From contig PSLI01000005.1 in assembly GCA_040289515.1 (NCBI GenBank), forward strand, positions 12,207-76,206: a DNA stretch of 64,000 bases, read 5' to 3'. The DNA is from Candidatus Sysuimicrobiota bacterium. GTDB lineage: Bacteria > Sysuimicrobiota > Sysuimicrobiia > Sysuimicrobiales > Sysuimicrobiaceae. The position numbers and the translations under genes were made by a program. The notes below the pieces were generated by a model. That model saw only the letters and a list, made by a program, of their open reading frames with translations, searched no databases and was not told the origin of the DNA. Of this stretch, positions 26,834 through 42,427 are shown piece by piece; the stretch's first letter is position 1, and each line of letters starts with the position of its first letter.

Positions 26834-26874
26834 GGCTCTGTCCCCTAGGCCCTGTCCCCGGGCTCTGTCCCCAG
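26834..26874. repeat. Three tandem GGCYCTGTCCCC units (REP-like) downstream of the transposase
   Basis: Units start at 26834, 26848 and 26861. Confidence 0.85.
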
Positions 26875-27144
26875 ATCCTGTGCCCGCTCCCAGTTCCGGC
26901 TCGCCCTTCTCCGCCGCACCACTGCCGGTTCAGCCGGGCGATTCTGCGGACTGCTCTCTAGGGAAGGACCGGGCTTGGCACTCTCGCGCCCCTCGACAAA
27001 ACGTCCGGGTGCCGCAACCCGCGGTCAAACCATCACGGCACCCCGGGCGCTTGGGCTTCGCTGACTCCCACTCCACCTGGCAGGTGAACTCCCTACGTGG
27101 CCTTTGTCGGCGGGCAACCCGCGCTCGCCGGTTCGCTACAGCAG

Positions 27145-27744
27145 TTACGTAGGGGCTCGCGGTGTGCCGCGTGATGGTTCCCCACGCTGGCCAACCTGCA
27201 GGGGTCGGGGCTGGCCTGAGTTCCGTGGAATCCAAGTCAAATCGTCGGACCGAGGGAAGTCTATCAGCTCGCGCAGGCGCGCGGCTGCGGTTACACCATC
27301 GGGGCGCCCCGCGTACGCCCCGAAGCTGCTCCATCGGTACTCCTCCGCGTAGTCGACCAAGCCTGCGCGGACCGGGTTGTCGTGAAGGTAGCGAACCAGC
27401 GCCCACAGGTACCGATCCACGGCGCAGGGCCAGCAACGAAAGCGGCCCTCGAAGACGTGTCCGCTCCGCTGGTAACGCTGGTTGTGCCACTGCGCGAAAC
27501 GACCATGCAGGTCGCGCATAAAGCCCGAGAGCACACCATCCGCCGCCCGGAGCAGCAGGTGAACGTGGTTCGGCATCAGCACGTACGCTAGGATGTCGAT
27601 GCCGTGACGTTCCGACATCCGGCGCATAAGTTTCAGATACTCCTCGAAAGCGTCCCGAGTGAGAAAGAGCCGCTCTCGACGGTTCCCCCGGCTCACCACG
27701 TGGTACACGCCCGCAGATAGATGGCCCCTGGCCCGACGCGCCAC
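27145..27744 (-). mobile_element. HUH/Y1 transposase, REP-associated (RAYT/TnpA-REP-like)
   Basis: YHVVSRGNRR, YVLMPNHVHLL (HUH), GHVFEGRF, YLHDNPVRAGLV, YRWSS; visibly lower GC than flanks. Confidence 0.9.
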
Positions 27745-27803
27745 GCGTCCCCCCTGCACGTCCCACGTTATTGAACGCCGCATCGGCCGGGTTTGGAGCC
27801 TTG

Positions 27804-27864
27804 GGCCCTGTCCCCTAGGACAGTCCCCCAAGGCCCTGTCCCCAGGGGACAGGGCCTTGGGGGA
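27804..27864. repeat. REP-like cluster upstream of the transposase, with a perfect 20-bp inverted repeat
   Basis: TCCCCCAAGGCCCTGTCCCC-A-GGGGACAGGGCCTTGGGGGA (27824-27864) plus an extra unit at 27804. Confidence 0.88.
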
Positions 27865-27945
27865 GCCGGCAGCCCCGGCCAGGCCCTCCCACCGGGCTGT
27901 CGGGAGCCTCCCGCAGGATTCGAAAGCGTACAATGCGGGTTGGAG

Positions 27946-29589
27946 ATGACCCGCCAGCAGCTGGAGAACCTTCTGCGGCGTAAGTCGGCGGAGATCGCCG
28001 CCCTGCGGGAGATCAGCCGCACCATCAGCCAAGCCCATGACCTGGACACCACCCTGACCACCATCACCCGCAAGACCGCGGAGGTCATGGGCATGGACTC
28101 CTGCTCCGTGTACCTTCTGGACCCCCAGGGGGAGTACCTGGTGCTGCGGGCCACCACGGGCCTGGCACCGGAGGCGGTGGGGCGGGCTCGCCTGCGGCTC
28201 GGGGAGGGGCTGACAGGGTGGGCCGCGCTGCACGAGCAGCCTGCCTGGAGCAGCGACGCGCCCAGCGACCCCCGGTTCGTGCTGCTCCCCGAGACCGAGG
28301 AGCTGCGCTTCCAGTCCCTGCTGGCCGTCCCCCTGACGGTGGGCGGCCGGGTGCTGGGGGCCATGAACGTGCAAACCCGCACCACCCACGAGTTCACCGA
28401 GGACGAGGTGGAGCTGGTCAGCATGATCGCGGACCTCGCCGGGGGGGCCATCGAGAAGGCCACCCTGCACGACCACATGCGGCGCCAGATCCGCGAGCTT
28501 TCTACCCTCGCGGAGCTCAGCCAGACCCTGGCCTCGCCCCTGTACCTGGAGCAGGTGCTGCAGGTCATCGTGCAGATGGCCGCCCGCATGCTGGAGGCCC
28601 GGCTGTGCTCCCTGCTGCTGGTGGATGAGACCGCGGGGCTCCTGCGGCCCGCGGCGGCCCACCCGGCAGGCGAGGCGTACACGGAACGGGCTCCCATCCC
28701 CCTGGGGGCCGGGATCGCGGGCCGGGTGGCCCAGACGGGTGAGAGGGAGGTGGTACCGGATCTGCTGGCCGAGCCCCGTTTTTCGGACCCCGAGTTCGCT
28801 TCCCGGGAGGAGCTTCGGTCCATGGTGTCGGTGCCCCTGCGGGTCCGAGACCGAATCATCGGCGTGCTGAACTGCTACCGTGGCCAACCCGCGGCTTTCA
28901 GCCCCGCGGACGTGAACCTCCTGACCACCCTCGCCACGCAGACGGCCCTGGCCATCGAGAACGCCAACCTGGTCATGCGGTCCGCGGTGGTGCGGGAAAT
29001 GCACCACCGGGTCAAGAACAACCTCCAGACCATCGCCATGCTGCTGCGTCTGCAGCTGGCGGACGGCCGCGAGCCTTCCGGCCGCGAGGTCCTCACGGAG
29101 ACCATCAACCGCGTCCTGGGTATCGCCGCGGTGCACGAGATCCTGTCCCTGGAAGGGTTCCGCACCGTGAACCTGCGGGAGGTGCTGGATCGGCTCACCC
29201 ACGCGGTGGTGGCCAACATGCGACGGCCCGATCTAGACCTCGAGGTGTCGGTGCAGGGCGACGACGTGTACTTCCCCTCCCAGCCCGCCACCTCCGCGGC
29301 CCTGGTAGCCACAGAGCTGGTCCAGAACGCTCTGGAGCACGCCTTCCGGGGCCGCACCCGCGGACGGCTGTGGGTGCGCCTGGTGGACACTGCCAGTCAC
29401 GTGGTGCTGGAGGTGGAGGACGACGGTACCGGACTGCCGGAGGGGTTCGACCCGGAGACCTGTTCCGACCTGGGCCTGCGCATCGCCCGGACCCTGGTCC
29501 GGGAGGACCTGAAGGGAGAGCTTTTGGCCTGCGGGGGCCTGGGCGCCCGGTTCGTGGTTCGCATCCCCAAGGAGGTTTTGGGCGCGTGA
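27946..29589 (+). CDS. Cytoplasmic double-GAF histidine kinase (HisKA_2, PdtaS/EutW-like)
   Basis: Two GAF repeats, EMHHRVKNNLQ, ELVQNALEH, DDGTG; no TM segment. Confidence 0.92.
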   Translation: MTRQQLENLLRRKSAEIAALREISRTISQAHDLDTTLTTITRKTAEVMGMDSCSVYLLDPQGEYLVLRATTGLAPEAVGRARLRLGEGLTGWAALHEQPAWSSDAPSDPRFVLLPETEELRFQSLLAVPLTVGGRVLGAMNVQTRTTHEFTEDEVELVSMIADLAGGAIEKATLHDHMRRQIRELSTLAELSQTLASPLYLEQVLQVIVQMAARMLEARLCSLLLVDETAGLLRPAAAHPAGEAYTERAPIPLGAGIAGRVAQTGEREVVPDLLAEPRFSDPEFASREELRSMVSVPLRVRDRIIGVLNCYRGQPAAFSPADVNLLTTLATQTALAIENANLVMRSAVVREMHHRVKNNLQTIAMLLRLQLADGREPSGREVLTETINRVLGIAAVHEILSLEGFRTVNLREVLDRLTHAVVANMRRPDLDLEVSVQGDDVYFPSQPATSAALVATELVQNALEHAFRGRTRGRLWVRLVDTASHVVLEVEDDGTGLPEGFDPETCSDLGLRIARTLVREDLKGELLACGGLGARFVVRIPKEVLGA

Positions 29590-30155
29590 AGCGCATCGTG
29601 GTGGCGGATGACGAAGCCCTGATCCGCATGGGGTTGCGGGCCATGCTGGAGGACCGCGGCTACCGGGTGGTGGGCGAAGCCTCCGACGGCCGGCGGGCCG
29701 TGGAGCTGGTGGTGCGTCTGCGGCCGGACCTGGTGTTCCTGGACGCGAAGATGCCGGGGATGGACGGGCTTGCGGCGGCTGCTCGTATCCAGCAGGTGTG
29801 CCCGACCCCCGTGGTACTGCTCACCGCGTACAGCGAGCGGGAACTGATCAAGCAGGCCCAGCAGGTGGGCGTGCTGGCCTACCTGGTGAAGCCTATCAAG
29901 GAGGAGGACCTCGTTCCCACCATCGAGGTGGCCCTGGCCCGCTTCGCGGACCTCCAGCGCAAGGCCCAGCGCATCGAGGAGCTGGAAGAACAGCTGCACA
30001 CCCGCAAGCTGGTGGAGCGGGCCAAGGGGTTGCTGATGCAGCGGGAGGGCCTGTCGGAGGAGGAAGCGTTCCGCCGGATCCAGGGGGAGGCCCGCCGCAC
30101 CCGCCGCACCATGCGGGAGGTGGCCCTGCAGATCCTCAGCGAGCAGCCCTCGTAG
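29586..30155 (+). CDS. REC-ANTAR response regulator (PdtaR/EutV-like)
   Basis: ADDE, LD..MP, KP; RKLVERAKGLLM..LSEEEAF ANTAR. Confidence 0.93.
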   Translation: MKRIVVADDEALIRMGLRAMLEDRGYRVVGEASDGRRAVELVVRLRPDLVFLDAKMPGMDGLAAAARIQQVCPTPVVLLTAYSERELIKQAQQVGVLAYLVKPIKEEDLVPTIEVALARFADLQRKAQRIEELEEQLHTRKLVERAKGLLMQREGLSEEEAFRRIQGEARRTRRTMREVALQILSEQPS

Positions 30156-33441: not shown

Positions 33442-33529
33442 CGCTTAACGCAAGGCCGCTGGCGGATCCCGAACCCGTGGTCCGGGCCGTCGGTGACAAG
33501 GGCGCCTGCACTACCGGAAGCGCCCCGGC

Positions 33530-33705
33530 GACCTTCTCCCATCCGGACTGTACCGTCGGCCCCGGACTGGGCTCCTCTAAGCCTCCACCGGAGTCCACCG
33601 CGCCGCAGACCGTACGCGGGTCGCGGGCTCGCACCGGCCCTGCCGGTGCCCACCGCCGGTCGGGAATCGGGGACCGTACAGCCCCCTCACCCTGCCCCGA
33701 AGGTC
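33530..33705 (-). ncRNA. FMN riboswitch (RFN element)
   Basis: CTTCGGGGCAGGGTGA..ATTCCCGACCGGCGGT..AGCCCGCGA..CCGGTG..CCGACGGTACAGTCCGGATGGGAGAAG upstream of the rib operon; TATAAT at 33724-33719. Confidence 0.96.
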
Positions 33706-33815
33706 CTACCGCGGCCTCATTATACTAGTTCGCACGTTTCAAGGCGCAACGTTCGAAAATGCCGACCCTTTCCCCTGGCCACGCTTCGCCGTGAAAACTT
33801 TTGGCCGCGGACCGG

Positions 33816-33865: not shown

Positions 33866-33987
33866 TGAGGGAGTGCGCCTAGGGTTCCGCGGCCTGCACC
33901 CACCAGGCCGGTCTGGGCCAAGCGGCGCAGGCGGGAGATCTGGCCCGCTACACCGTCGGGACAAAAGCCCGAGGGGGAGGTTCCTCA
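33866..33987 (+). ncRNA. ykkC-motif riboswitch, subtype 2, probably ppGpp-sensing
   Basis: CCTAGGGTTCCG..GGGCCAAGCGG..ACACCGTCGGGACAAAAGCCCGAGGGG; extra closing stem TGAGGGA/TTCCTCA; upstream of glutamate synthase. Confidence 0.88.
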
Positions 33988-34020
33988 GGCAGAGGCCCCC
34001 TCGGGCTTCGGGTTATTTTT
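33965..34020 (+). terminator. Riboswitch terminator overlapping the aptamer 3' end
   Basis: AAGCCCGAGGGGG/CCCCCTCGGGCTT stem followed by GGGTTATTTTT. Confidence 0.8.
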
Positions 34021-34049: not shown

Positions 34050-37000
34050 GTGACGTCTTTGGCGGCGTTTCCGGAGCGCGACGCGTGCGGGGTGGGGTTC
34101 GTAGCGCGGCTGGACGGAGTCCCCTCCCACGCGGTGCTCCAGGCCGCACTGCGCGCTCTGCGCAACCTGGCCCACCGGGGAGCCCAGGCGGCGGACGGCC
34201 GCACGGGGGACGGAGCGGGCATCCTCACCGAGATTCCGCACGGGCTGTTTGCCCGCGTTCTGCGGGAAATGGGCTACCGTGGCGACGAGGGGCCCCTGGT
34301 CGTGGGAATGTTCTTCTTCCCCACCGCGGAGGACCGCTACCGGGCCTGCCGGGAGGCGTGTGACGCGGAGTTCGCCCGCGCAGGCCTGCGGCTGCTGGGA
34401 TGGCGGACGCCCCCGGTGCAGCCTAAGGCCCTGGGCGAATACGCCCTGCGCACCCTGCCCCGCATCCAGCAAGCCCTGCTGACCCCGCTGGTGGAGTGGG
34501 AGCCCGAGGCGCTGGAACGGCACCTGTACCTGGTTCGGCGCCGCATCGAGAAGCGCACAGCATCCCTGGGACTGTACATCCCTTCCCTATCCTGCCGGAC
34601 GGTGGTGTACAAAGCCCTGGTCTCCGCCCCGCAGCTGGAGCGCTTCTACCTGGACCTTCAGGATCAGGACTTCGCGGTGCGGGCTGCAGTGTTCCACCAG
34701 CGCTACAGCACCAACACCCACCCCTCCTGGCAGCTGGCGCAGCCCTTCCGCTTGGTGGCCCACAACGGTGAGATCAACACGCTGCTGGGGAACGTGAACT
34801 GGATGCGGGCCCGGGAGGGCGACCTGCGCAGCAGCGTGTGGGAGGACCGGCTGCAGGAGCTGCTCCCCGTGATCCAGGACGGGGGCAGCGACAGCGCCAT
34901 GCTGGACAATGTGCTGGAGCTGGTGCGCCGCAGCGGCCGTGACCTTCCCCACGCGGTGCGGATGTTGGTGCCCGAGGCGTGGGAGGGCGCCTGGAACCTG
35001 GACGCGGCCGTGCGGGCCTTCTATCGCTACCACGCGTGCCTTGCCGAACCGTGGGACGGGCCGGCGGCGTTGGCCTTCTTCGATGGCCGCACGGTGGGGA
35101 TGGCCCTGGACCGCAACGGCCTGCGTCCAGCCCGGTATACCGTCACCCACGAAGGCCTGGTGGTGGCCGGCTCCGAGGTGGGCGTCCTGCCCATCCCGCC
35201 CGGACGGGTCCTGGAGAAGGGCCGGCTGGGTCCGGGAGAGATGGTGGTGGTGGACCTGGAGGAGCGGCGTTTCCTGCACCACCCCGAGATCCTCCAGCGT
35301 CTGTCCCGGCGCCGTCCGTACGTCAAGTGGGTGGAGCGCCTGGTGCGGGTGGAGCCTAAGCCGAAGTCCTGTTCCCCGGAGGAGCGGGTGGACCTGCTGC
35401 ACCTGGCGTTCGGCTACACGAAGGAGGACCTGCAGCGGGTGCTACAAGCCATGGCGGCGGAGGGCAAGGACCCCGTGGGCTCCATGGGCGACGACACCCC
35501 TCCCTCGGCCCTGTCCAGCCAGCCACGGCTGCTGTACCAGTTCTTCCGCCAGCGGTTCGCTCAGGTCACCAACCCGCCCATCGATCCCTTGCGGGAGCGG
35601 GTGGTGATGTCCCTGGAGGTGCGGCTGGGGGCTCGCCGTTCCTTCCTGGAGGAAGGGCCGGAGCACGCGGATCTGGTGGAGCTAGCCAGCCCCGTGCTGC
35701 CGGACCTGGACTGGCTGGAGGAGGTTCCCCTGCAGCCCAAGCTTCTGGACGCTACCTTCGAAGCGGAACGGGGCGCGCACGGGCTAGAGGAGGCTTTGGA
35801 CCACCTGTGCCGCCAGGCCGAGGAAGCGGTGCGCGCGGGCTGCACCGCCCTGGTTCTCAGCGACCGCCGGGTGAACCGCGAGCGGGCGCCCATCCCGGCC
35901 CTGCTGGCCACCGCGGCGGTGCACCACCACCTGATCCGCCGAGGCCTGCGCCTGCGGACCGCGTTGCTGGTGGAAACCGGAGAGGCCCGGGAGGTGCATC
36001 ACGTGGCCTGCCTGGTGGGCTACGGTGCCGAGGGGGTCTACCCTTACCTAGCGCTCGCCACCGCCCAACGCCTGTCCAGTCAGGGTGCCGGCAACCTCAA
36101 GAAGGCTCTTGAAGCCGGGCTGCTCAAGGTCATGGCCAAGATGGGCATCGCCCCCCTGCAGGCTTACTGCGGGGCGCAGATCTTCGAGACCATCGGGCTC
36201 GAGCAGAGCCTGGTGGATCGCTACTTTCCGGGCACCCCCAACCACGTGCCGGGCGTTGGGCTGGCGGCCCTGGCGCGGGACGTGCTGGAGCGGCACGCCG
36301 CCTACCGCCGGGCCCTGGCGGGCGAACCCGCCACGGTGCCGGACCTCGGGTTTTACCGGTACCGGCACGGGGGCGAGCAGCACGGGTTCGAGCCGGACGT
36401 GGTAAAAGCTATCCACCGGGTGAGCTTGAACGGTCCCGCAGCGTACCCTGATCTTGCGGAGCTGGTGAGCGCCCGGCCTCCGCAGGCCCTGCGGGACCTG
36501 CTGGAGATCCAGCCCGCGGGGCCTCCGGTTCCCCTGGAGGAGGTGGAGCCCGCGGAGCGCATCCTCCGCCGGTTCGTCATCTCCGCCATGTCCCACGGGG
36601 CTCTGTCCCGGGAGGCCCACGAGACGCTGGCCATCGCCGCCAACCGCCTGGGCATGCGCTGCAACAGTGGGGAGGGCGGCGAGGACCCTGCCCGCCGCCA
36701 GGTGCGGCCCAACGGCGACTGGCCCAACACCACCATCAAGCAGGTGGCCTCCGGCCGGTTCGGCGTCACCGCGGGCTACCTGCGCTCTGCGGTGGAGCTG
36801 GAGATCAAGATGGCGCAGGGCAGCAAGCCGGGGGAGGGTGGTCAGCTGCTGGGGCACAAGGTGACCGAAGAGATCGCGCGGCTGCGCAAGACCCAGCCGG
36901 GTACCGCCCTCATCTCGCCCCCGCCCCACCACGACATCTACAGCATCGAGGACCTGGCGCAGCTCATCTACGATCTCAAGCAGGTGCACCCCACCGCGCA

Positions 37001-38453
37001 CGTGGCGGTGAAGCTGGTGGCCACCACCGGGGTTGGCACCATCGCCTCCGGCGTGGCCAAGGGTTTCGCGGACGTGGTGCAGATCAGCGGTCACGAGGGC
37101 GGCACCGGTGCTTCCCCCCTGGACTCCATCAAGAACGCAGGGCTGCCCTGGGAGGTGGGGTTGAGCGAGGTCCGCCGAGCGTTGAGCGCCAACGGCCTGC
37201 GGGGTCGGGTGCGGATCCGGGTGGACGGCGGGTTCAAGGTGGGCCGGGACGTGGTGCTGGCAGCCCTACTGGGGGCGGACGAGTTTGGGTTTGGCACCGC
37301 GGCCCTGGTGGCCCTGGGCTGCGTCATGGCCCGGCAGTGCCACAACAACACCTGCCCCGTGGGCATCGCCACCCAGCGGGAGGACCTGCGCAGCAAGTTC
37401 CCGGGTACGCCCGAGCGGGTGGAGGCGTACTTCCGGGCCCTGGCGGAGGACGTGCGGCGACAGCTGGCCCAGATGGGTGCGCGCTCCCTGGAGGAGATCA
37501 TCGGGCGCGTGGACCTCCTCCGGGTTCGGGACGACGTGCGCCTGAACCGCGCCGAGCAGCTGGACCTGTCCGAGCTTTTACAGCCCGCACACGGCCAGAC
37601 CCGAGGCAGCTTTGCGGCCCCCCTGCCCGTGGAGGGTCCGTTGAACCGGCTGCTGGTGGAGCAGTACCGGCAGACCATCGAGCACGGCGTGCCCGCGGAG
37701 GGACACCACCCCATCACGAACCGGGACCGCACCGTGGGCGCCACCCTGGCGGGCGAGATCGCGCAGCGGTGGGGTGACGCGGGCCTGCCGGAGGGCACCC
37801 TCCGCCTCACCTTCGAGGGGGAAGCCGGCCAGAGCTTCGGGGCCTTCTGCATGCCGGGCATGCAGCTGCGCCTGGTGGGCGAGGCCAACGACTACGCGGG
37901 CAAGGGGATGTCGGGGGGTGAGATCGTCCTGGTGCCGCCGCCTCCGTTGCACCGGGACAGCTGGCGGCACGTCATCGTGGGCAACACGGTGCTGTACGGA
38001 GCCACCGGCGGGGTGTTCTTCGCCGCCGGCCGGGCTGGGGAGCGGTTCGCAGTGCGCAACAGCGGCGCGGTGGCGGTGGTGGAGGGCGCGGGAGACCACT
38101 GCTGCGAGTACATGACCGGCGGTGTGGTGGTGGTCCTGGGTCCCGTGGGCCGCAACGTCGGTGCGGGCATGACGGGCGGGCGCGCCTACGTGCTGGACGA
38201 GGCGGGCGTGCTGGATCGCCAGATCAACGCCGACTCTGTACAGACCGCGCCCCTGTCCGAGCCGGAGGCGGAAGAGCTGCGGGCGCTTTTGGTGGGCTAC
38301 CACGAGGCCACGGGAAGCCACCGGGCCCAGCTGCTCCTGCGGCGGTGGCCGCGCGTGGTGCACCAGTTCCGGGCGGTGCGGCCGCGCTCCGCGGCGGAAG
38401 TCCCCGTGCAGGTGCCCGCCCGAAGCACCGGTGCAGCCCGCCGGGCCCGTTGA
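34050..38453 (+). CDS. gltB: Glutamate synthase large subunit
   Basis: ERDACGVGF, HQRYSTNT, HNGEINT, KQVASGRFGV, QGSKPGEGGQL, CVMARQCHNNTCP. Confidence 0.98.
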   Translation: MTSLAAFPERDACGVGFVARLDGVPSHAVLQAALRALRNLAHRGAQAADGRTGDGAGILTEIPHGLFARVLREMGYRGDEGPLVVGMFFFPTAEDRYRACREACDAEFARAGLRLLGWRTPPVQPKALGEYALRTLPRIQQALLTPLVEWEPEALERHLYLVRRRIEKRTASLGLYIPSLSCRTVVYKALVSAPQLERFYLDLQDQDFAVRAAVFHQRYSTNTHPSWQLAQPFRLVAHNGEINTLLGNVNWMRAREGDLRSSVWEDRLQELLPVIQDGGSDSAMLDNVLELVRRSGRDLPHAVRMLVPEAWEGAWNLDAAVRAFYRYHACLAEPWDGPAALAFFDGRTVGMALDRNGLRPARYTVTHEGLVVAGSEVGVLPIPPGRVLEKGRLGPGEMVVVDLEERRFLHHPEILQRLSRRRPYVKWVERLVRVEPKPKSCSPEERVDLLHLAFGYTKEDLQRVLQAMAAEGKDPVGSMGDDTPPSALSSQPRLLYQFFRQRFAQVTNPPIDPLRERVVMSLEVRLGARRSFLEEGPEHADLVELASPVLPDLDWLEEVPLQPKLLDATFEAERGAHGLEEALDHLCRQAEEAVRAGCTALVLSDRRVNRERAPIPALLATAAVHHHLIRRGLRLRTALLVETGEAREVHHVACLVGYGAEGVYPYLALATAQRLSSQGAGNLKKALEAGLLKVMAKMGIAPLQAYCGAQIFETIGLEQSLVDRYFPGTPNHVPGVGLAALARDVLERHAAYRRALAGEPATVPDLGFYRYRHGGEQHGFEPDVVKAIHRVSLNGPAAYPDLAELVSARPPQALRDLLEIQPAGPPVPLEEVEPAERILRRFVISAMSHGALSREAHETLAIAANRLGMRCNSGEGGEDPARRQVRPNGDWPNTTIKQVASGRFGVTAGYLRSAVELEIKMAQGSKPGEGGQLLGHKVTEEIARLRKTQPGTALISPPPHHDIYSIEDLAQLIYDLKQVHPTAHVAVKLVATTGVGTIASGVAKGFADVVQISGHEGGTGASPLDSIKNAGLPWEVGLSEVRRALSANGLRGRVRIRVDGGFKVGRDVVLAALLGADEFGFGTAALVALGCVMARQCHNNTCPVGIATQREDLRSKFPGTPERVEAYFRALAEDVRRQLAQMGARSLEEIIGRVDLLRVRDDVRLNRAEQLDLSELLQPAHGQTRGSFAAPLPVEGPLNRLLVEQYRQTIEHGVPAEGHHPITNRDRTVGATLAGEIAQRWGDAGLPEGTLRLTFEGEAGQSFGAFCMPGMQLRLVGEANDYAGKGMSGGEIVLVPPPPLHRDSWRHVIVGNTVLYGATGGVFFAAGRAGERFAVRNSGAVAVVEGAGDHCCEYMTGGVVVVLGPVGRNVGAGMTGGRAYVLDEAGVLDRQINADSVQTAPLSEPEAEELRALLVGYHEATGSHRAQLLLRRWPRVVHQFRAVRPRSAAEVPVQVPARSTGAARRAR

Positions 38454-38580
38454 CACGGGCCCGCGGGCGGGTTACCCTCAGCTCGAAACCTGAAGCCGCG
38501 CCAGGACGCCGGCCCGACAGCCGGCGTCTCCTTTTTCGGAGGCCAAGACGCCCCGACCGGCCGGGCGCTGCTCTTTTTTC
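38450..38580 (+). promoter_or_regulatory. Promoter and leader with two terminators, each overlapped by a CRNGAC-loop hairpin
   Basis: TTGACA-17-TACCCT; terminators 38505-38536 and ~38549-38579. Confidence 0.75.
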
Positions 38581-38601
38581 AAACAGGCAAGGGGGTCCAG
38601 C

Positions 38602-39189
38602 GTGAGCAAGCGGATCGTGATCGCCGAGGACGAGGCGGTGGTCCGCATGGGGGTGCGGGCCATCCTGGAGGCGGCGGGCTACCGGGTGGCAGGAGAGGCG
38701 GCCAACGGCGAGGAGTGCCTGGAGCTGGTGCGCTCCTGCGACCCCGACCTCGTGATCCTGGACGTGCGCATGTCCCCGCCGGACGGCATCGAGGTGGCCC
38801 GTCGGCTGCGGGAGACGTCCCCACGGCCGGTGGTGTTCCTCACCGCCTTCAGCGACCGGCAGCTGCTGGAGGCCGCCGCGGAAGCCGGAGCCTACGGATA
38901 CGTGGTAAAGCCCGTGGTGGGCGCAGAGCTGCTGGCGGCCGTGGAGCTGGCCTGGGCCCGCTGGCGCGACCTGCAGGAGGCCCGGGAGGCCCTGCAGACC
39001 CGCAAGCTGGTGGAGCGGGCCAAGGGCGTGCTGATGCGGCGGCTGGGGCTCGGGGAGGAGGAAGCGTACCGCCTGCTGCAGCGCCGCAGCCGTAACCTGC
39101 GGCGCCCCATGCGGGAGGTGGCGCAGGCGGTCCTGGTGCAGGAGGAGATCGTCTCGCAGTCCTCCAAGCCAAAGCCGAAACCCCGTTGA
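38602..39189 (+). CDS. REC-ANTAR response regulator (NitR-like context)
   Basis: AEDE, LDVRM, KP; RKLVERAKGVLM..EEEAYRLLQRRS. Confidence 0.94.
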   Translation: MSKRIVIAEDEAVVRMGVRAILEAAGYRVAGEAANGEECLELVRSCDPDLVILDVRMSPPDGIEVARRLRETSPRPVVFLTAFSDRQLLEAAAEAGAYGYVVKPVVGAELLAAVELAWARWRDLQEAREALQTRKLVERAKGVLMRRLGLGEEEAYRLLQRRSRNLRRPMREVAQAVLVQEEIVSQSSKPKPKPR

Positions 39190-39317
39190 CAACCGCCCGC
39201 GGGGTTGGTATAAGAACGGTAGGCTGGGCCGGGACGCCCGTGGGTGCGGACGTCCCGGCCCTTTGTGTTTCGCAGACACTTCGGGCCAGGACGCCCTCCC
39301 GGGCGTCCTGTGCTTTT
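39186..39317 (+). promoter_or_regulatory. amtB promoter and leader with two hairpin/terminator modules
   Basis: TTGACA-17-TATAAG; terminators 39226-39270 and 39287-39317. Confidence 0.8.
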
Positions 39318-39330
39318 CCGGGAGGGAGCG

Positions 39331-40694
39331 ATGCGTAGACTCGGCATCCTGGTTGGTGCTTTTGCCCTGCTGGCCTGCGCCCCCGCCGCCTGGGCCGCAG
39401 ACCCCGCGGGGCCGCTACCCTGAAGGCCAGCCCGTCCGCACCGGTGAACTTCACCTGGACCTTGGTGGCGGCTTTCCTGGTGTTCTTCATGCAGGCGGGG
39501 TTCGCCCTCTTGGGCGCGGGTCTTATTCGCTCCAAGAACACCGTCAACTACCTCACCAAGAGCTACATGGACTTCAGCATCGCGGCCCTCAGCTACTGGG
39601 CCTTCGGCTTCGCCCTCATGTTCGGCGGCAGCAAGCTGGCTAGCGGCCTGGAGTACGGGAACGCCTGGGTGGGGCTTTCGGGCTTCTTCCTGAGCGGCGC
39701 GGCCTACGACGTTACCACGACCCTGTATTGGTTCTTCCAGATGGTGTTCGCGGCCACCGCGGCCACCATCGTGGCGGGCGCCGTGGCGGAGCGCACCAAG
39801 ATCCAGGCATACCTGGCGTACAGCTTCATCGTGAGCGCCCTCATCTACCCGATCTACGGGCACTGGGTGTGGGGCGGGGGCTGGCTGGCCAACCTCCCCT
39901 TCGGGGCGGGGGCGAAGGACTTCGCGGGTTCCGGCGTGGTGCACACGGTGGGCGGTCTGCTGGGCCTGATGGGTGCCGCCATGGTGGGGCCCCGAATCGG
40001 CAAGTTCAACCCCGACGGAACCCCCAACCCCATCCCCGGCCACAACATGGTGTACGTGGTCACGGGCACCTTCATCCTGTTCTTCGGGTGGTTCGGCTTC
40101 AACCCGGGTAGCACCCTGGCCGCCACGGACCTGCGCATCTCCATCATCGCGGTGAACACCTTCCTGGCCGGTGCGGCGGGCGGCGTGGTGGCTTTGTACG
40201 CCACCCTGGCCCGCACGGGCAAGGCCGACATCGCCATGGCCTGCAACGGCGCCCTGGCGGGCCTGGTGGGCATCACGGCCCCCTGCGCCTACGTGGCCCC
40301 GTGGGCCGCGGTGGTGATCGGCGGCGTGGCGGCCCTGGTCATGATGTGGAGCCTCGGGTTTGTGGAGCGGGTGCTGAAGGTGGACGACCCCGTGGGCGCG
40401 GTATCCGTGCACGCCGCGGGTGGCCTGTGGGGGCTGCTGGCGGTGGGGATCTTCGCGGACGGTACTTACCAGAACGTCCGCGGCCTCATCGTGGGCGAGG
40501 TGGGCCAGCTGATCGCACAGCTGATCAGCATGGGTGCGGTGACCGTGTGGACCCTCGCCACCGGGTACCTGATGTTCGCCCTGCTCCGGGCCACCATCGG
40601 GCTGCGGGCCTCCCGGGAGGAGGAGTTGCAGGGCCTGGACATCCCCGAGCACGGAGTGCCCGCCTACGTCCTGGAGCCCGCGCCCGGGCTGTAG
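39331..40694 (+). CDS. amtB: Ammonium transporter; signal-peptide region frameshifted at ~39410
   Basis: FMQAGF, FQMVFA, HWVWGGG, DFAGSGVVH, GWFGFN, DDP..VH; ATG 39331 with SD encodes a signal peptide that joins the main frame if one G is added to the run 39408-39411. Confidence 0.95.
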
Positions 40695-40743
40695 GAGGAG
40701 AGGTTTGCACGGCCACACTTTCCGGAAAGGAGGTCGGAGGTCC

Positions 40744-40851
40744 ATGGAAGCTTGGCTCGCACTGGGATCCTTCGTGCTGCTGTTCTGCGCGTGGGTGGTG
40801 CTGCCCAGCCGGCTTTTGCGGCGCGCGCGGCGGGCCGAGGAGGAGGTTTGA
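40744..40851 (+). CDS. Unannotated 35-aa single-TM peptide MEAWLALGSFVLLFCAWVVLPSRLLRRARRAEEEV
   Basis: Double SD AAAGGAGGTCGGAGG, ATG, hydrophobic helix then Arg cluster; fills the amtB-glnA gap. Confidence 0.75.
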   Translation: MEAWLALGSFVLLFCAWVVLPSRLLRRARRAEEEV

Positions 40852-40951
40852 CAGCCGGCCCGGGGTTGTGCTATAAGAGCTGCGAACCCAATCGGGAATC
40901 CTGCGGGCCGCGACGCCCCTGCGCCATCGGCGCCGGGGCGTCTTTGCGTTT
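40848..40951 (+). promoter_or_regulatory. glnA promoter and leader with one hairpin/terminator module
   Basis: TTGACA-18-TATAAG; GGGC-CGCGAC-GCCC overlapping terminator 40912-40951. Confidence 0.8.
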
Positions 40952-40987
40952 CGGGGAAAGACTTCTGAGGAGCGGAGGTGCAGACAG

Positions 40988-42427
40988 ATGGTTCCAAGGA
41001 CGCCCAGCGACGTGCTGGCCCTGATCAAGGAGAAGGAGATCCAGATGGTGGACCTGCGGTTCACCGACCTGCCGGGGACCTGGCAGCACACCTCCGTCCC
41101 CGCCTCCCAGGTAGACCTGTCCACCTTCACCAAGGGCATCGGGTTCGACGGCAGCAGCATCCGGGGCTTCCAGGCCATCCAGGAGAGCGACATGCTGCTG
41201 GTGCCAGACCCCAGCACCGCCTTCGTGGATCCCTTCCTGGAGATCCCCACTCTGGTCATGATCTGCGACGTGGTGGACCCGGAGACCCGGGCCCCCTACT
41301 CCCGTGACCCCCGGTACGTGGCCCGCAAGGCGGAGGCGTACCTGAAGGAAACGGGGATCGCGGACCTGAGCTTCTGGGGCCCGGAGATCGAGTTCTTCAT
41401 CTTCGACCACGTCACCTACGAGGTGGCGCCCCACCGGATGGGCTACTCCATCGACAGCCGGGAGGGCATCTGGAACAGCGGCAACGGGGAAGGGAAGAAT
41501 CTGGGCTACAAGATCCGGCCCAAGGAGGGGTACTTCCCCACCCCGCCCACCGACACCTTCCAGGACATCCGCAGCGAGGCGGCCCTCCTCCTGGAACGGA
41601 TCGGCATCCCCGTGGAGATGCACCACCACGAGGTGGCCACCGCCGGCCAGGCGGAGGTGGACATGGAGCGGGACAGCCTGGTGCGCATGGCGGACAAGGT
41701 CATGGTGTACAAGTACGTGATGCGGAACGTGGCCCGGCGCCACGGTTGCACCGTGACCTTTATGCCCAAACCCCTCTTCGGCGACAACGGGAACGGCATG
41801 CACACCCACCAGAGCCTGTGGAAGGACGGCCGCAACCTGTTTTACGCGGAGGGCGGCTACGCGGAGCTCAGCCCTCTCGCCCTCCACTACGTGGCCGGTC
41901 TGCTCACCCACGTGGACAGCTTGCTGGGCTTCACCAGCCCCACCACCAACTCCTACAAGCGGCTGGTTCCCCACTACGAGGCGCCCGTGAACGTGGCCTT
42001 CAGCAAGCGCAACCGCAGCGCCTGCGTGCGCATCCCCATGTACTATTCCGGTCCGGAATCTGCGGCCAGCAAGCGGGTCGAGTTCCGGCCTCCGGATCCC
42101 AGCTGCAACCCGTACCTGGCCTTCGCGGCTATGCTCATGGCAGGGCTGGACGGCGTTCGCCGGAAGCTGGACGCTTCCCCCTTCGGGTCCCTGGACGTGA
42201 ACACCTATGAGTTGCCGCCGGAGGAGGCAGCCCGGGTGAAGAGCGTGCCCGGCTCCCTGGGGGCGGTGCTGGACGCCCTGGAGGCGGACCACGAGTACCT
42301 GCTGGAGGGCGACGTGTTCACCCGGGACCTGATCGACACCTGGGTGGCGTACAAGCGGGAACGCGAGCTCCACGAGGTGAACATCCGGCCCCACCCGTAC
42401 GAGTTCTACCTGTACTTCGACGTCTGA
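40988..42427 (+). CDS. glnA: Glutamine synthetase type I
   Basis: FDGSSI, HHHEVAT, TFMPKP..DNGNGMHTHQSL, NSYKRLVP, NRSACVRIP, RVEFR. Confidence 0.98.
   Translation: MVPRTPSDVLALIKEKEIQMVDLRFTDLPGTWQHTSVPASQVDLSTFTKGIGFDGSSIRGFQAIQESDMLLVPDPSTAFVDPFLEIPTLVMICDVVDPETRAPYSRDPRYVARKAEAYLKETGIADLSFWGPEIEFFIFDHVTYEVAPHRMGYSIDSREGIWNSGNGEGKNLGYKIRPKEGYFPTPPTDTFQDIRSEAALLLERIGIPVEMHHHEVATAGQAEVDMERDSLVRMADKVMVYKYVMRNVARRHGCTVTFMPKPLFGDNGNGMHTHQSLWKDGRNLFYAEGGYAELSPLALHYVAGLLTHVDSLLGFTSPTTNSYKRLVPHYEAPVNVAFSKRNRSACVRIPMYYSGPESAASKRVEFRPPDPSCNPYLAFAAMLMAGLDGVRRKLDASPFGSLDVNTYELPPEEAARVKSVPGSLGAVLDALEADHEYLLEGDVFTRDLIDTWVAYKRERELHEVNIRPHPYEFYLYFDV

Follow-up and report, generated by a model that had tools for sequence, protein, structure and literature searches.

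Five RNA hairpins in the leaders of an ANTAR regulator gene, amtB, and glnA form a predicted ANTAR-type nitrogen regulon in a bacterium of the uncultured order Sysuimicrobiales. The analyzed stretch of DNA, below called the window, comprises 64,000 nucleotides (nt) of Candidatus Sysuimicrobiota bacterium (assembly GCA_040289515.1, contig PSLI01000005.1, positions 12,207 to 76,206 of the forward strand). In each unit, a hairpin with a six-base loop (hexaloop) overlaps a predicted intrinsic terminator, whose 5' arm is formed by the 3' half of the hairpin, and ANTAR regulators with an arginine in place of the loop-plugging methionine of EutV likely bind this hairpin on the nascent RNA. The predicted element works like an ANTAR antiterminator and fails two canonical features of ANTAR targets, an adenine at loop position 1 (A1) and paired hairpins. 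Antitermination of amtB, glnA, and the regulator gene, as proposed in an earlier note on this DNA, finds good support in conservation, covariation, and co-occurrence, and we consider ANTAR antitermination as such very probable at these units. For antitermination together with a true co-adaptation of the arginine and a pyrimidine at position 1, comparison of genomes tips the balance slightly in favor.

All five hairpins described in the earlier note were recovered on the plus strand (Table 1). Each has a six-base loop, a stem of at least three pairs, a closing C-G pair, G at loop position 4 (G4), and, as had been claimed, C at position 1 (C1). The stem of unit 1, previously called weak, is stronger than that: GCCG-C-GC-CAGGAC-GC-CGGC forms two pairs, a bulge, and four pairs, with a folding energy of -7.7 kcal/mol. 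The overlap of every hairpin with a terminator hairpin and a U-rich tail was likewise seen for all five, the terminator of unit 2 being weak here. The terminators of units 1-5 fold with -20.3, -9.4, -31.7, -20.6, and -27.2 kcal/mol and the hexaloop hairpins with -7.7, -2.4, -7.2, -5.7, and -6.0 kcal/mol; since the terminator fold is the more stable one, the predicted default is "stop". Unit 3 begins 11 nt after the -10 box, and its terminator pairs with the entire hairpin. Terminator 2 has a z-score of +0.58 in its own genome, and its counterpart in four congeners (L002-L005) is a clean stem. A terminator scan picked up units 1, 4, and 5 only, not terminators 2 and 3. The strict 12-mer [GC]GCC-NN-GACGCC occurs five times in 38450-40990, compared with at most two occurrences in any of 2000 dinucleotide shuffles, and 40 times in the whole 1.99-Mb genome. 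No Rfam family matched positions 38490-40951 at the gathering score or at E up to 1. The gene labels given before are correct according to Pfam.

A model-based comparison, akin to the check suggested in the earlier note, covered the source genome and 60 relatives (seven of the same genus, four of the same family, and 49 of the same order); close homologs of regulator A, the product of the first of the three genes, carry the NCBI label Armatimonadota bacterium. Model R1, trained on 35 units that all come from outside the source genus, placed the five sites at ranks 1-5 in the window: unit 5 with 40.5 bits, unit 4 with 28.3, unit 1 with 26.3, unit 3 with 18.0, and unit 2 with 13.6. With 150 of the 5804 candidates of the source genome scored, unit 5 is the top match, the three best matches lie in these leaders, and no further units were found beyond them. 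A regular-expression scan of this genome returned 11 matches, three of them window units, and the single other strict match is inside a coding frame. No unit precedes gltB in this genome; a riboswitch sits there instead. A looser genome scan for any hexaloop with a terminator gave 220 matches without an excess of G4 and was dropped as uninformative.

The module, GGC-CNNGRH-GCC plus the terminator that it overlaps, is kept throughout the order and shows compensatory changes. When proteins were located first and the loop was left free, 28 of the 32 glnA leaders had a unit, as had 27 of the 29 amtB leader loci that have a promoter of their own (loop again free; three duplicated loci are in this set). 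Two of the four glnA misses retain the hairpin and failed the U-tail filter. The other two come from genomes without ANTAR genes, where the gap from GGCC to GACGCC is 8 nt instead of 2; here glnA and its terminator are retained and the loop is stretched by six bases. Over the 35 units, 98.7% of 315 cells of the terminator helix are paired, with 40 double changes compared with 9.4 in shuffles, and the covarying pairs include loop positions 5 and 6 (AU/GC, CG/AU/UA). Position 4 is G in 35 of 35 units, opposite C or U, G4 being part of the selecting pattern; all 40 amtB loops, read without any constraint on the loop, have G there as well. The fourth pair of the hexaloop stem is formed in 32 of 35 units, with five double changes. 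With 99 candidates scored per genome, R1 matches at E <0.01 were enriched where ANTAR genes are present: 22 of 24 held-out ANTAR-bearing genomes had one, versus none of eight genomes without ANTAR genes. The two exceptions are G013, whose sole ANTAR protein is of the glutamine type described below, and G041, whose glnA unit has T at position 1 (T1). One unpublished genome, G023, is counted among the 22 and among all 53 genomes with ANTAR genes; the conclusions hold without it. Other matches in the order precede gltB, further ANTAR genes, LysE, and genes for peptide-binding proteins; many have no assignable open reading frame (ORF) in the cut-outs.

Several observations weigh against ANTAR antitermination at these sites. 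In the hexaloop stem, the three core pairs are invariant and hence give no covariation signal, and a slid control matches the covariation counts of the whole structure. The eight ANTAR-less genomes represent two genera only; six of them have neither amtB nor the matching type of glnA, and the other two are 86-87% complete. A strict promoter scan of the window called none of the three inferred promoters. A core stem without covariation would also suit another explanation, in which the units are plain, partly leaky terminators and the conserved GGC-N6-GCC serves as an operator in DNA or binds some factor other than ANTAR. This element is palindromic as DNA, many leaders have it about 20 nt from the promoter, and the link of these sites to ANTAR proteins is drawn from sequence comparison. 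We find this explanation highly improbable. The loop of the element is asymmetric, always on the transcribed strand, and upstream of the terminator; it can lie anywhere between about 2 and 95 nt from the start; A1 forms are found in the same slot; and it is the hairpin, not the terminator, that is lost in the two ANTAR-less genomes keeping glnA. The geometry also equals that of the GnfR site CAGGCAANGGCGCC, which is reported to be bound as RNA (PMC2995071).

ANTAR proteins may also bind these hairpins and mainly affect translation or pausing, as described for mycobacterial Rv1626 targets (10.1101/660928; PMC8164766). The interrupted U-tails (TGCTTTT in unit 4, TTTGCGTTT in unit 5) and the fold of unit 4, which extends towards the amtB ribosome-binding site, are compatible with this explanation. 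We think it very unlikely, because units 1, 3, and 5 are 35-90 nt from the start codon and leave the ribosome-binding site uncovered, and U-rich tails are kept across the order, in Anaerolineae, and in Clostridia.

The candidate readers of these RNAs retain the residues that recognize G4 in EutV. Regulator A aligns with EutV (6wsh) at E 7e-35, with no gaps in the ANTAR domain, and keeps EutV R142, K143, E160, Y164, S171, N173, and R175, its E152 and Y156 corresponding to E160 and Y164. The changes are K147 to Arg, R168 to Gln, R177 to Pro, and M172 to Arg (R164 of regulator A). In EutV, Met172 sits in the center of the loop, and its loss is reported to abolish RNA binding (PMC8934654). Regulator B, encoded elsewhere in the window, also has Arg at this position (R170), with E and F at EutV positions 160 and 164, and a third ANTAR paralog has Gln. 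The receiver (REC) domain has its phospho-acceptor Asp, and the motifs ILDVRM, FLTAFS, and VVKPV were found. Among 21 relatives with a single ANTAR gene, 20 proteins were read, of which 19 have Arg and one has Gln; the Gln-only genome (G013) has no good unit. Many unit-bearing relatives have no ANTAR protein other than one of the kinase-linked type, which makes regulator B the probable core reader.

Two side observations concern other ANTAR proteins. In families f2 and f4 (L124, L177-L179, L212-L218), a divergent REC-ANTAR clade in which Ala, Ser, or Thr at EutV Y164 replaces the aromatic residue that stacks on G4 is encoded directly behind a C1 unit; possibly, this switch induces it as a decoy or as a sink for phosphate. 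In family f4 (L021, L022, L024-L027, L030), the frame of the kinase-linked ANTAR gene extends roughly 350-400 residues past the ANTAR domain.

Position 1 is C in 104 of the 107 units of the order, A in two, and T in one; positions 2 and 3 vary. Both A1 units belong to genome G017: one lies in the leader of its single Met protein gene and the other before the nearby amtB; the remaining units of this genome are C1. A C1 DNA pattern found 67 loci in a species collection, and downstream ORFs were scanned for 63. Of the 19 loci in Chloroflexota, 16 lie before amtB, glnA, or gltB, and three Bacillota loci lie before nifH or the gene for PII. Eighteen of the 19 Chloroflexota genomes picked by C1 have one ANTAR gene each, all of the Arg type, compared with 67 Met, two Gln, and one Arg among the domains of an even Chloroflexota sample (70 of 143 listed domains read, namely the 30 with the best scores and 40 picked at lower ranks). 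The lone Arg genome of that sample, G452, has a C1 unit before amtB. In Clostridia, Met proteins are found by A1 or G1 sites and Arg proteins accompany C1 or T1 sites; G280, G226, and G082 contain exceptions. A hand tally of sites not picked for C1 gave 22 purines and two pyrimidines for Met proteins (two of the sites being those of G017), versus two purines and seven pyrimidines for Arg proteins outside the order (Fisher p 3e-4, or 8e-4 without three sites from a C-biased model, values that are overstated because the sites are kin and not independent).

In a tree of 38 proteins, the Arg proteins of Clostridia fall within the Clostridial Met proteins, and a single clade of all Arg proteins is rejected (approximately unbiased test, p-AU 4e-8; at least three changes). 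This was a quick tree with the trait column dropped and one long-branch row omitted, and the tested group was named after the first tree had been seen. Genome GC content was considered as an explanation of C1 and ruled out by Clostridial loci of 31-36% GC with C1 or T1 and by a Chloroflexota locus of 63% GC with A1. Of the altered specificity suggested in the earlier note, what holds is a tendency, a correlation that offers a candidate molecular basis: in two or more distinct lineages of the proteins, Arg at the Met172 position tracks a pyrimidine at position 1. A strict code of Met with A1 and Arg with C1 is ruled out by G280 and G226, each with a single Met protein and with CAGGAC before glnA and TAAGGC before PII-amtB, respectively.

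Besides these two genomes, other data count against the co-adaptation. G082, which also has a Met protein, carries an A1 site before its Arg gene, and G452 has an A1 match before an unassigned gene. Only 21 of the 67 C1-pattern loci precede clear nitrogen genes, and about two thirds are unrelated or unassigned. Arg is mostly accompanied by Gln at EutV R168, so another residue could be the real determinant. In Met-type Chloroflexota (22 of 30 genomes have amtB), most of the amtB leaders read show no unit (L504, L512, L518, L520, L523, L525, L526, and L531 were outside this reading), and therefore the Met/A1 side rests mainly on Clostridia. On the Arg side, the glnA leaders of Chloroflexota supplied few new sites because most are operon-internal. 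Finally, A1 is described as making no specific contact in the EutV-RNA crystal (PMC8934654), so that position 1 may be only loosely read.

Taken further, the crystal would allow an ordinary ANTAR regulon with position 1 unread, C1 and Arg being separate lineage traits co-inherited by descent. Met genomes with C1 or T1 sites exist, A1 and G4 are given as only ">50%" conserved in actinobacterial targets (PMC8164766), and the proteins of the order and of Anaerolineae may share one origin, which would leave few independent events. We nevertheless regard this explanation as rather unlikely, since it leaves C at 104 of 107 units beside variable positions 2 and 3, an A1 switch inside G017 that follows the Met paralog, and a separate Clostridial Arg clade. 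It also sits poorly with the reports that A1-to-U mutations cut EutV induction and binding (PMC3369931) and that NasR selects A1 in vitro (PMC7496416), both of which imply that position 1 matters for Met proteins. The text of the literature searched contains nothing on C1 loops or Arg at the Met172 position; figure content was outside this search, and the ANTAR logo in Fig. 4A of PMC8934654 and the alignments in Figs S1-S2 of PMC3369931 possibly show such variation. We regard the C1/Arg pairing as new.

As a separate observation, an uncultured lineage (G084 with L563, L567, and L570; L227, L239, L242) has several C1 units with an upstream conserved GGACCCC...GGACG motif. These precede a REC-PilZ gene and a gene for a sigma-54 activator, near Arg and Met ANTAR paralogs.

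The leaders depart from the known architecture as well. EutV is reported to need both hairpins, 5-12 nt apart (PMC3369931), and antitermination is lost on lengthening the linker by 20 nt, yet EutV binds one hairpin no less well than two (PMC8934654). All three leaders of the window lack a partner first hairpin with a 5-12 nt linker, which, given the requirement of EutV, speaks against antitermination. The hairpins of the two tandem leaders are separated by 27 and 43 nt, each linker containing a terminator, and glnA has a single clear hairpin, as noted before, with no G4 hexaloop upstream of unit 5. The 107 distinct units of the order, counted with an inferred promoter, include 87 that are first in their leader and 20 that are second. 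Fourteen first units are <12 nt from the estimated start and leave no room for a partner. Among the 73 with room, 25 have a true upstream G4 hexaloop (shuffles: mean 8.1, maximum 15), mostly in one family, which gives the textbook arrangement of two hairpins, and 19 of these 25 have C or T at position 1; the other 48 have none by a three-pair rule, some retaining remnants of one or two pairs. Thus, the order has both two-hairpin and one-hairpin forms, and the window has the one-hairpin form only, singly or in series. First hairpins of leaders without a partner hairpin are the second new element here. The one-hairpin layout is not peculiar to this lineage, because one-hairpin A1 sites are common before Clostridial glnA.

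The double gating of amtB and of the regulator gene proposed in the earlier note is real in sequence insofar as serial units exist, and the second unit is dispensable in relatives: G001 has a single unit before the regulator gene, and family members G008, G010, and G011 have a single unit before amtB. The units before the regulator gene, taken as a sign of autoregulation, are equally real. Neither feature is new. The dual A1/G4 hexaloop motif has been defined with predicted sites before amtB, glnA, and ANTAR genes, including two sites in series before amtB-PII in Desulfotomaculum acetoxidans (PMC3369931 Table S2). An ANTAR regulon over amtB, glnA, and its own gene, and serial sites, had therefore already been predicted in print.

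The following mechanism can be suggested. Under nitrogen shortage, the GAF-GAF kinase at 27946 would phosphorylate the adjacent regulator B, and the activated ANTAR dimer would clamp the hairpin and permit read-through into the regulator gene, amtB, and glnA, by analogy with EutV and GnfR. As in EutV, the dimer would flip out G4 into the conserved Arg/Glu/Tyr-or-Phe pocket. The loop center would be plugged by Arg instead of Met, and this change appears to go with a pyrimidine instead of A1; Arg could touch the O2 edge, which C and U share, or simply need more room. Because each leader lacks a recruitment hairpin for its first hairpin, that hairpin would have to be caught by itself. With a second unit in series, the response would become sharper, and regulator A, encoded behind two units, would act as a positive-feedback amplifier. 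We offer only tentatively a stronger version, in which the plug residue alone sets an ANTAR code (Met for purine-1, Arg for pyrimidine-1). The Arg class would have arisen at least twice, in the order with Anaerolineae and in Clostridia, paralogs would run separate regulons in one cell, and antitermination would need one hairpin; such regulons would be invisible to A1-seeded dual-hairpin searches.

Compared with the eut system of Enterococcus faecalis (PMC3369931, PMC8934654), the likeness lies in a REC-ANTAR regulator with a HisKA_2-type kinase nearby, in C-G-closed hexaloops with G4 that overlap an intrinsic terminator, and in the retained G4-reading residues. The differences are C instead of A at position 1, Arg instead of Met172, Gln instead of Arg168, the lack of a partner hairpin 5-12 nt upstream in the three window leaders, and, in tandem leaders, a separate terminator for each of the two hairpins. 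The GnfK/GnfR system of Geobacter sulfurreducens (nifH, glnK-amtB; PMC2995071) is another two-component ANTAR control of nitrogen genes. Its site has the same GGC-N6-GCC stem running into a terminator and is described as one motif; unlike the units here, it has A at position 1 and functions with sigma-54 promoters under GnfL/GnfM, whereas the promoters here are probably of the sigma-70 type. The predicted regulons of Desulfotomaculum, Desulforudis, and Carboxydothermus (PMC3369931 Table S2) share sites before amtB-PII, glnA, and ANTAR genes, and, unlike the present ones, these were found with an A1/G4 dual-hairpin model; Chloroflexota names were not found in the seven supplements of PMC3369931 that were term-searched. 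The closest solved structure to regulator A is PdtaR of the PdtaS/PdtaR pair (Rv3220c/Rv1626; 1s8n; E 2e-40). It shares the Gln at EutV R168, keeps the Met plug unlike regulator A, and has targets that act mostly on translation (10.1101/660928).

Table 1. Hexaloop units, genes, and inferred promoters of the window (window positions).
Feature	Position	Strand	Description
Unit 1	38495..38539	+	Hexaloop CAGGAC 38495-38513, overlaps terminator 38504-38529, tail CCTTTTT
Unit 2	38541..38580	+	Hexaloop CAAGAC 38541-38552, overlaps weak terminator 38547-38569, tail CTCTTTTTT
Unit 3	39226..39271	+	Hexaloop CGGGAC 39226-39239, terminator 39226-39261, tail TTTGTGTTT
Unit 4	39283..39320	+	Hexaloop CAGGAC 39283-39296, overlaps terminator 39287-39310, tail TGCTTTT
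Unit 5	40905..40952	+	Lone hexaloop CGCGAC 40905-40918, overlaps terminator 40911-40942, tail TTTGCGTTT
Inferred sigma-70-type promoter, regulator A gene	38450..38478	+	TTGACA, 17 nt, TACCCT; sequence reading; congeners share layout
Inferred amtB promoter	39186..39214	+	TTGACA, 17 nt, TATAAG; overlaps regulator A stop codon
Inferred glnA promoter	40848..40877	+	TTGACA, 18 nt, TATAAG; sequence reading
REC-ANTAR response regulator A	38602..39189	+	195 aa; Pfam PF00072+PF03861
amtB, ammonium transporter	39331..40694	+	PF00909; transporter domain in frame from 39444
Hydrophobic 35-aa ORF	40744..40851	+	amtB-glnA interval; kept in relatives
glnA, glutamine synthetase	40988..42427	+	PF00120+PF03951
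GAF-GAF-HisKA_2 sensor kinase	27946..29589	+	Candidate activator (role inferred); domain search
REC-ANTAR response regulator B	29586..30155	+	Kinase-linked, candidate core regulator; domain search
gltB	34050-38453		Directly upstream neighbor of the regulator A/amtB/glnA region

The kinase and regulator B genes form a pair about 9 kb upstream of the regulator A/amtB/glnA region, the stop codon of the former overlapping the start of the latter, and a different contig of the genome carries the third ANTAR gene together with a kinase of its own. Compared with four congeners, amtB has one base fewer near 39420, by an assembly error or a real change; as a result of this gap, the leading approximately 30 codons from the ATG at 39331 are out of frame and end in a stop. 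The 35-aa hydrophobic ORF between amtB and glnA matched no Pfam family and is kept in the family and in G017; it could encode a small membrane partner of AmtB or GlnA. A Guanidine-I/ykkC-family aptamer precedes gltB (33868-33978, plus strand; 57.7 of 63 bits, E 1.5e-8, below the Rfam cut-off), followed in the terminator scan by a terminator-like hairpin at 33992-34009. Its position before glutamate synthase would fit ppGpp subtype 2a of these aptamers (PMC6003355). An FMN riboswitch (33527-33708, minus strand; 56.3 of 66.2 bits, E 5.5e-11, below the cut-off) precedes riboflavin-synthesis-like genes. In 26840-27880, short GTCCCC/GGGGAC repeats lie on both sides of a minus-strand ORF with HV...PNHVH motifs, which we take to resemble a REP-associated tyrosine transposase.

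The structure of EutV bound to RNA left two questions open: why A1 is conserved though uncontacted, and why a second hairpin is needed when the dimer binds only one (PMC8934654). The natural variant described here, with a candidate one-residue switch for position 1 and with lone-hairpin leaders, offers a direct test of both. If the proposed regulation is true, ANTAR regulons would extend to a whole uncultured order and to Anaerolineae, and a first sketch of nitrogen control in both would be at hand; orthogonal protein-RNA pairs would also become available for synthetic circuits. The loop letter C for A and the residue Arg for Met, co-occurring in several lineages, would constitute a simple, testable rule of recognition in the ANTAR family.

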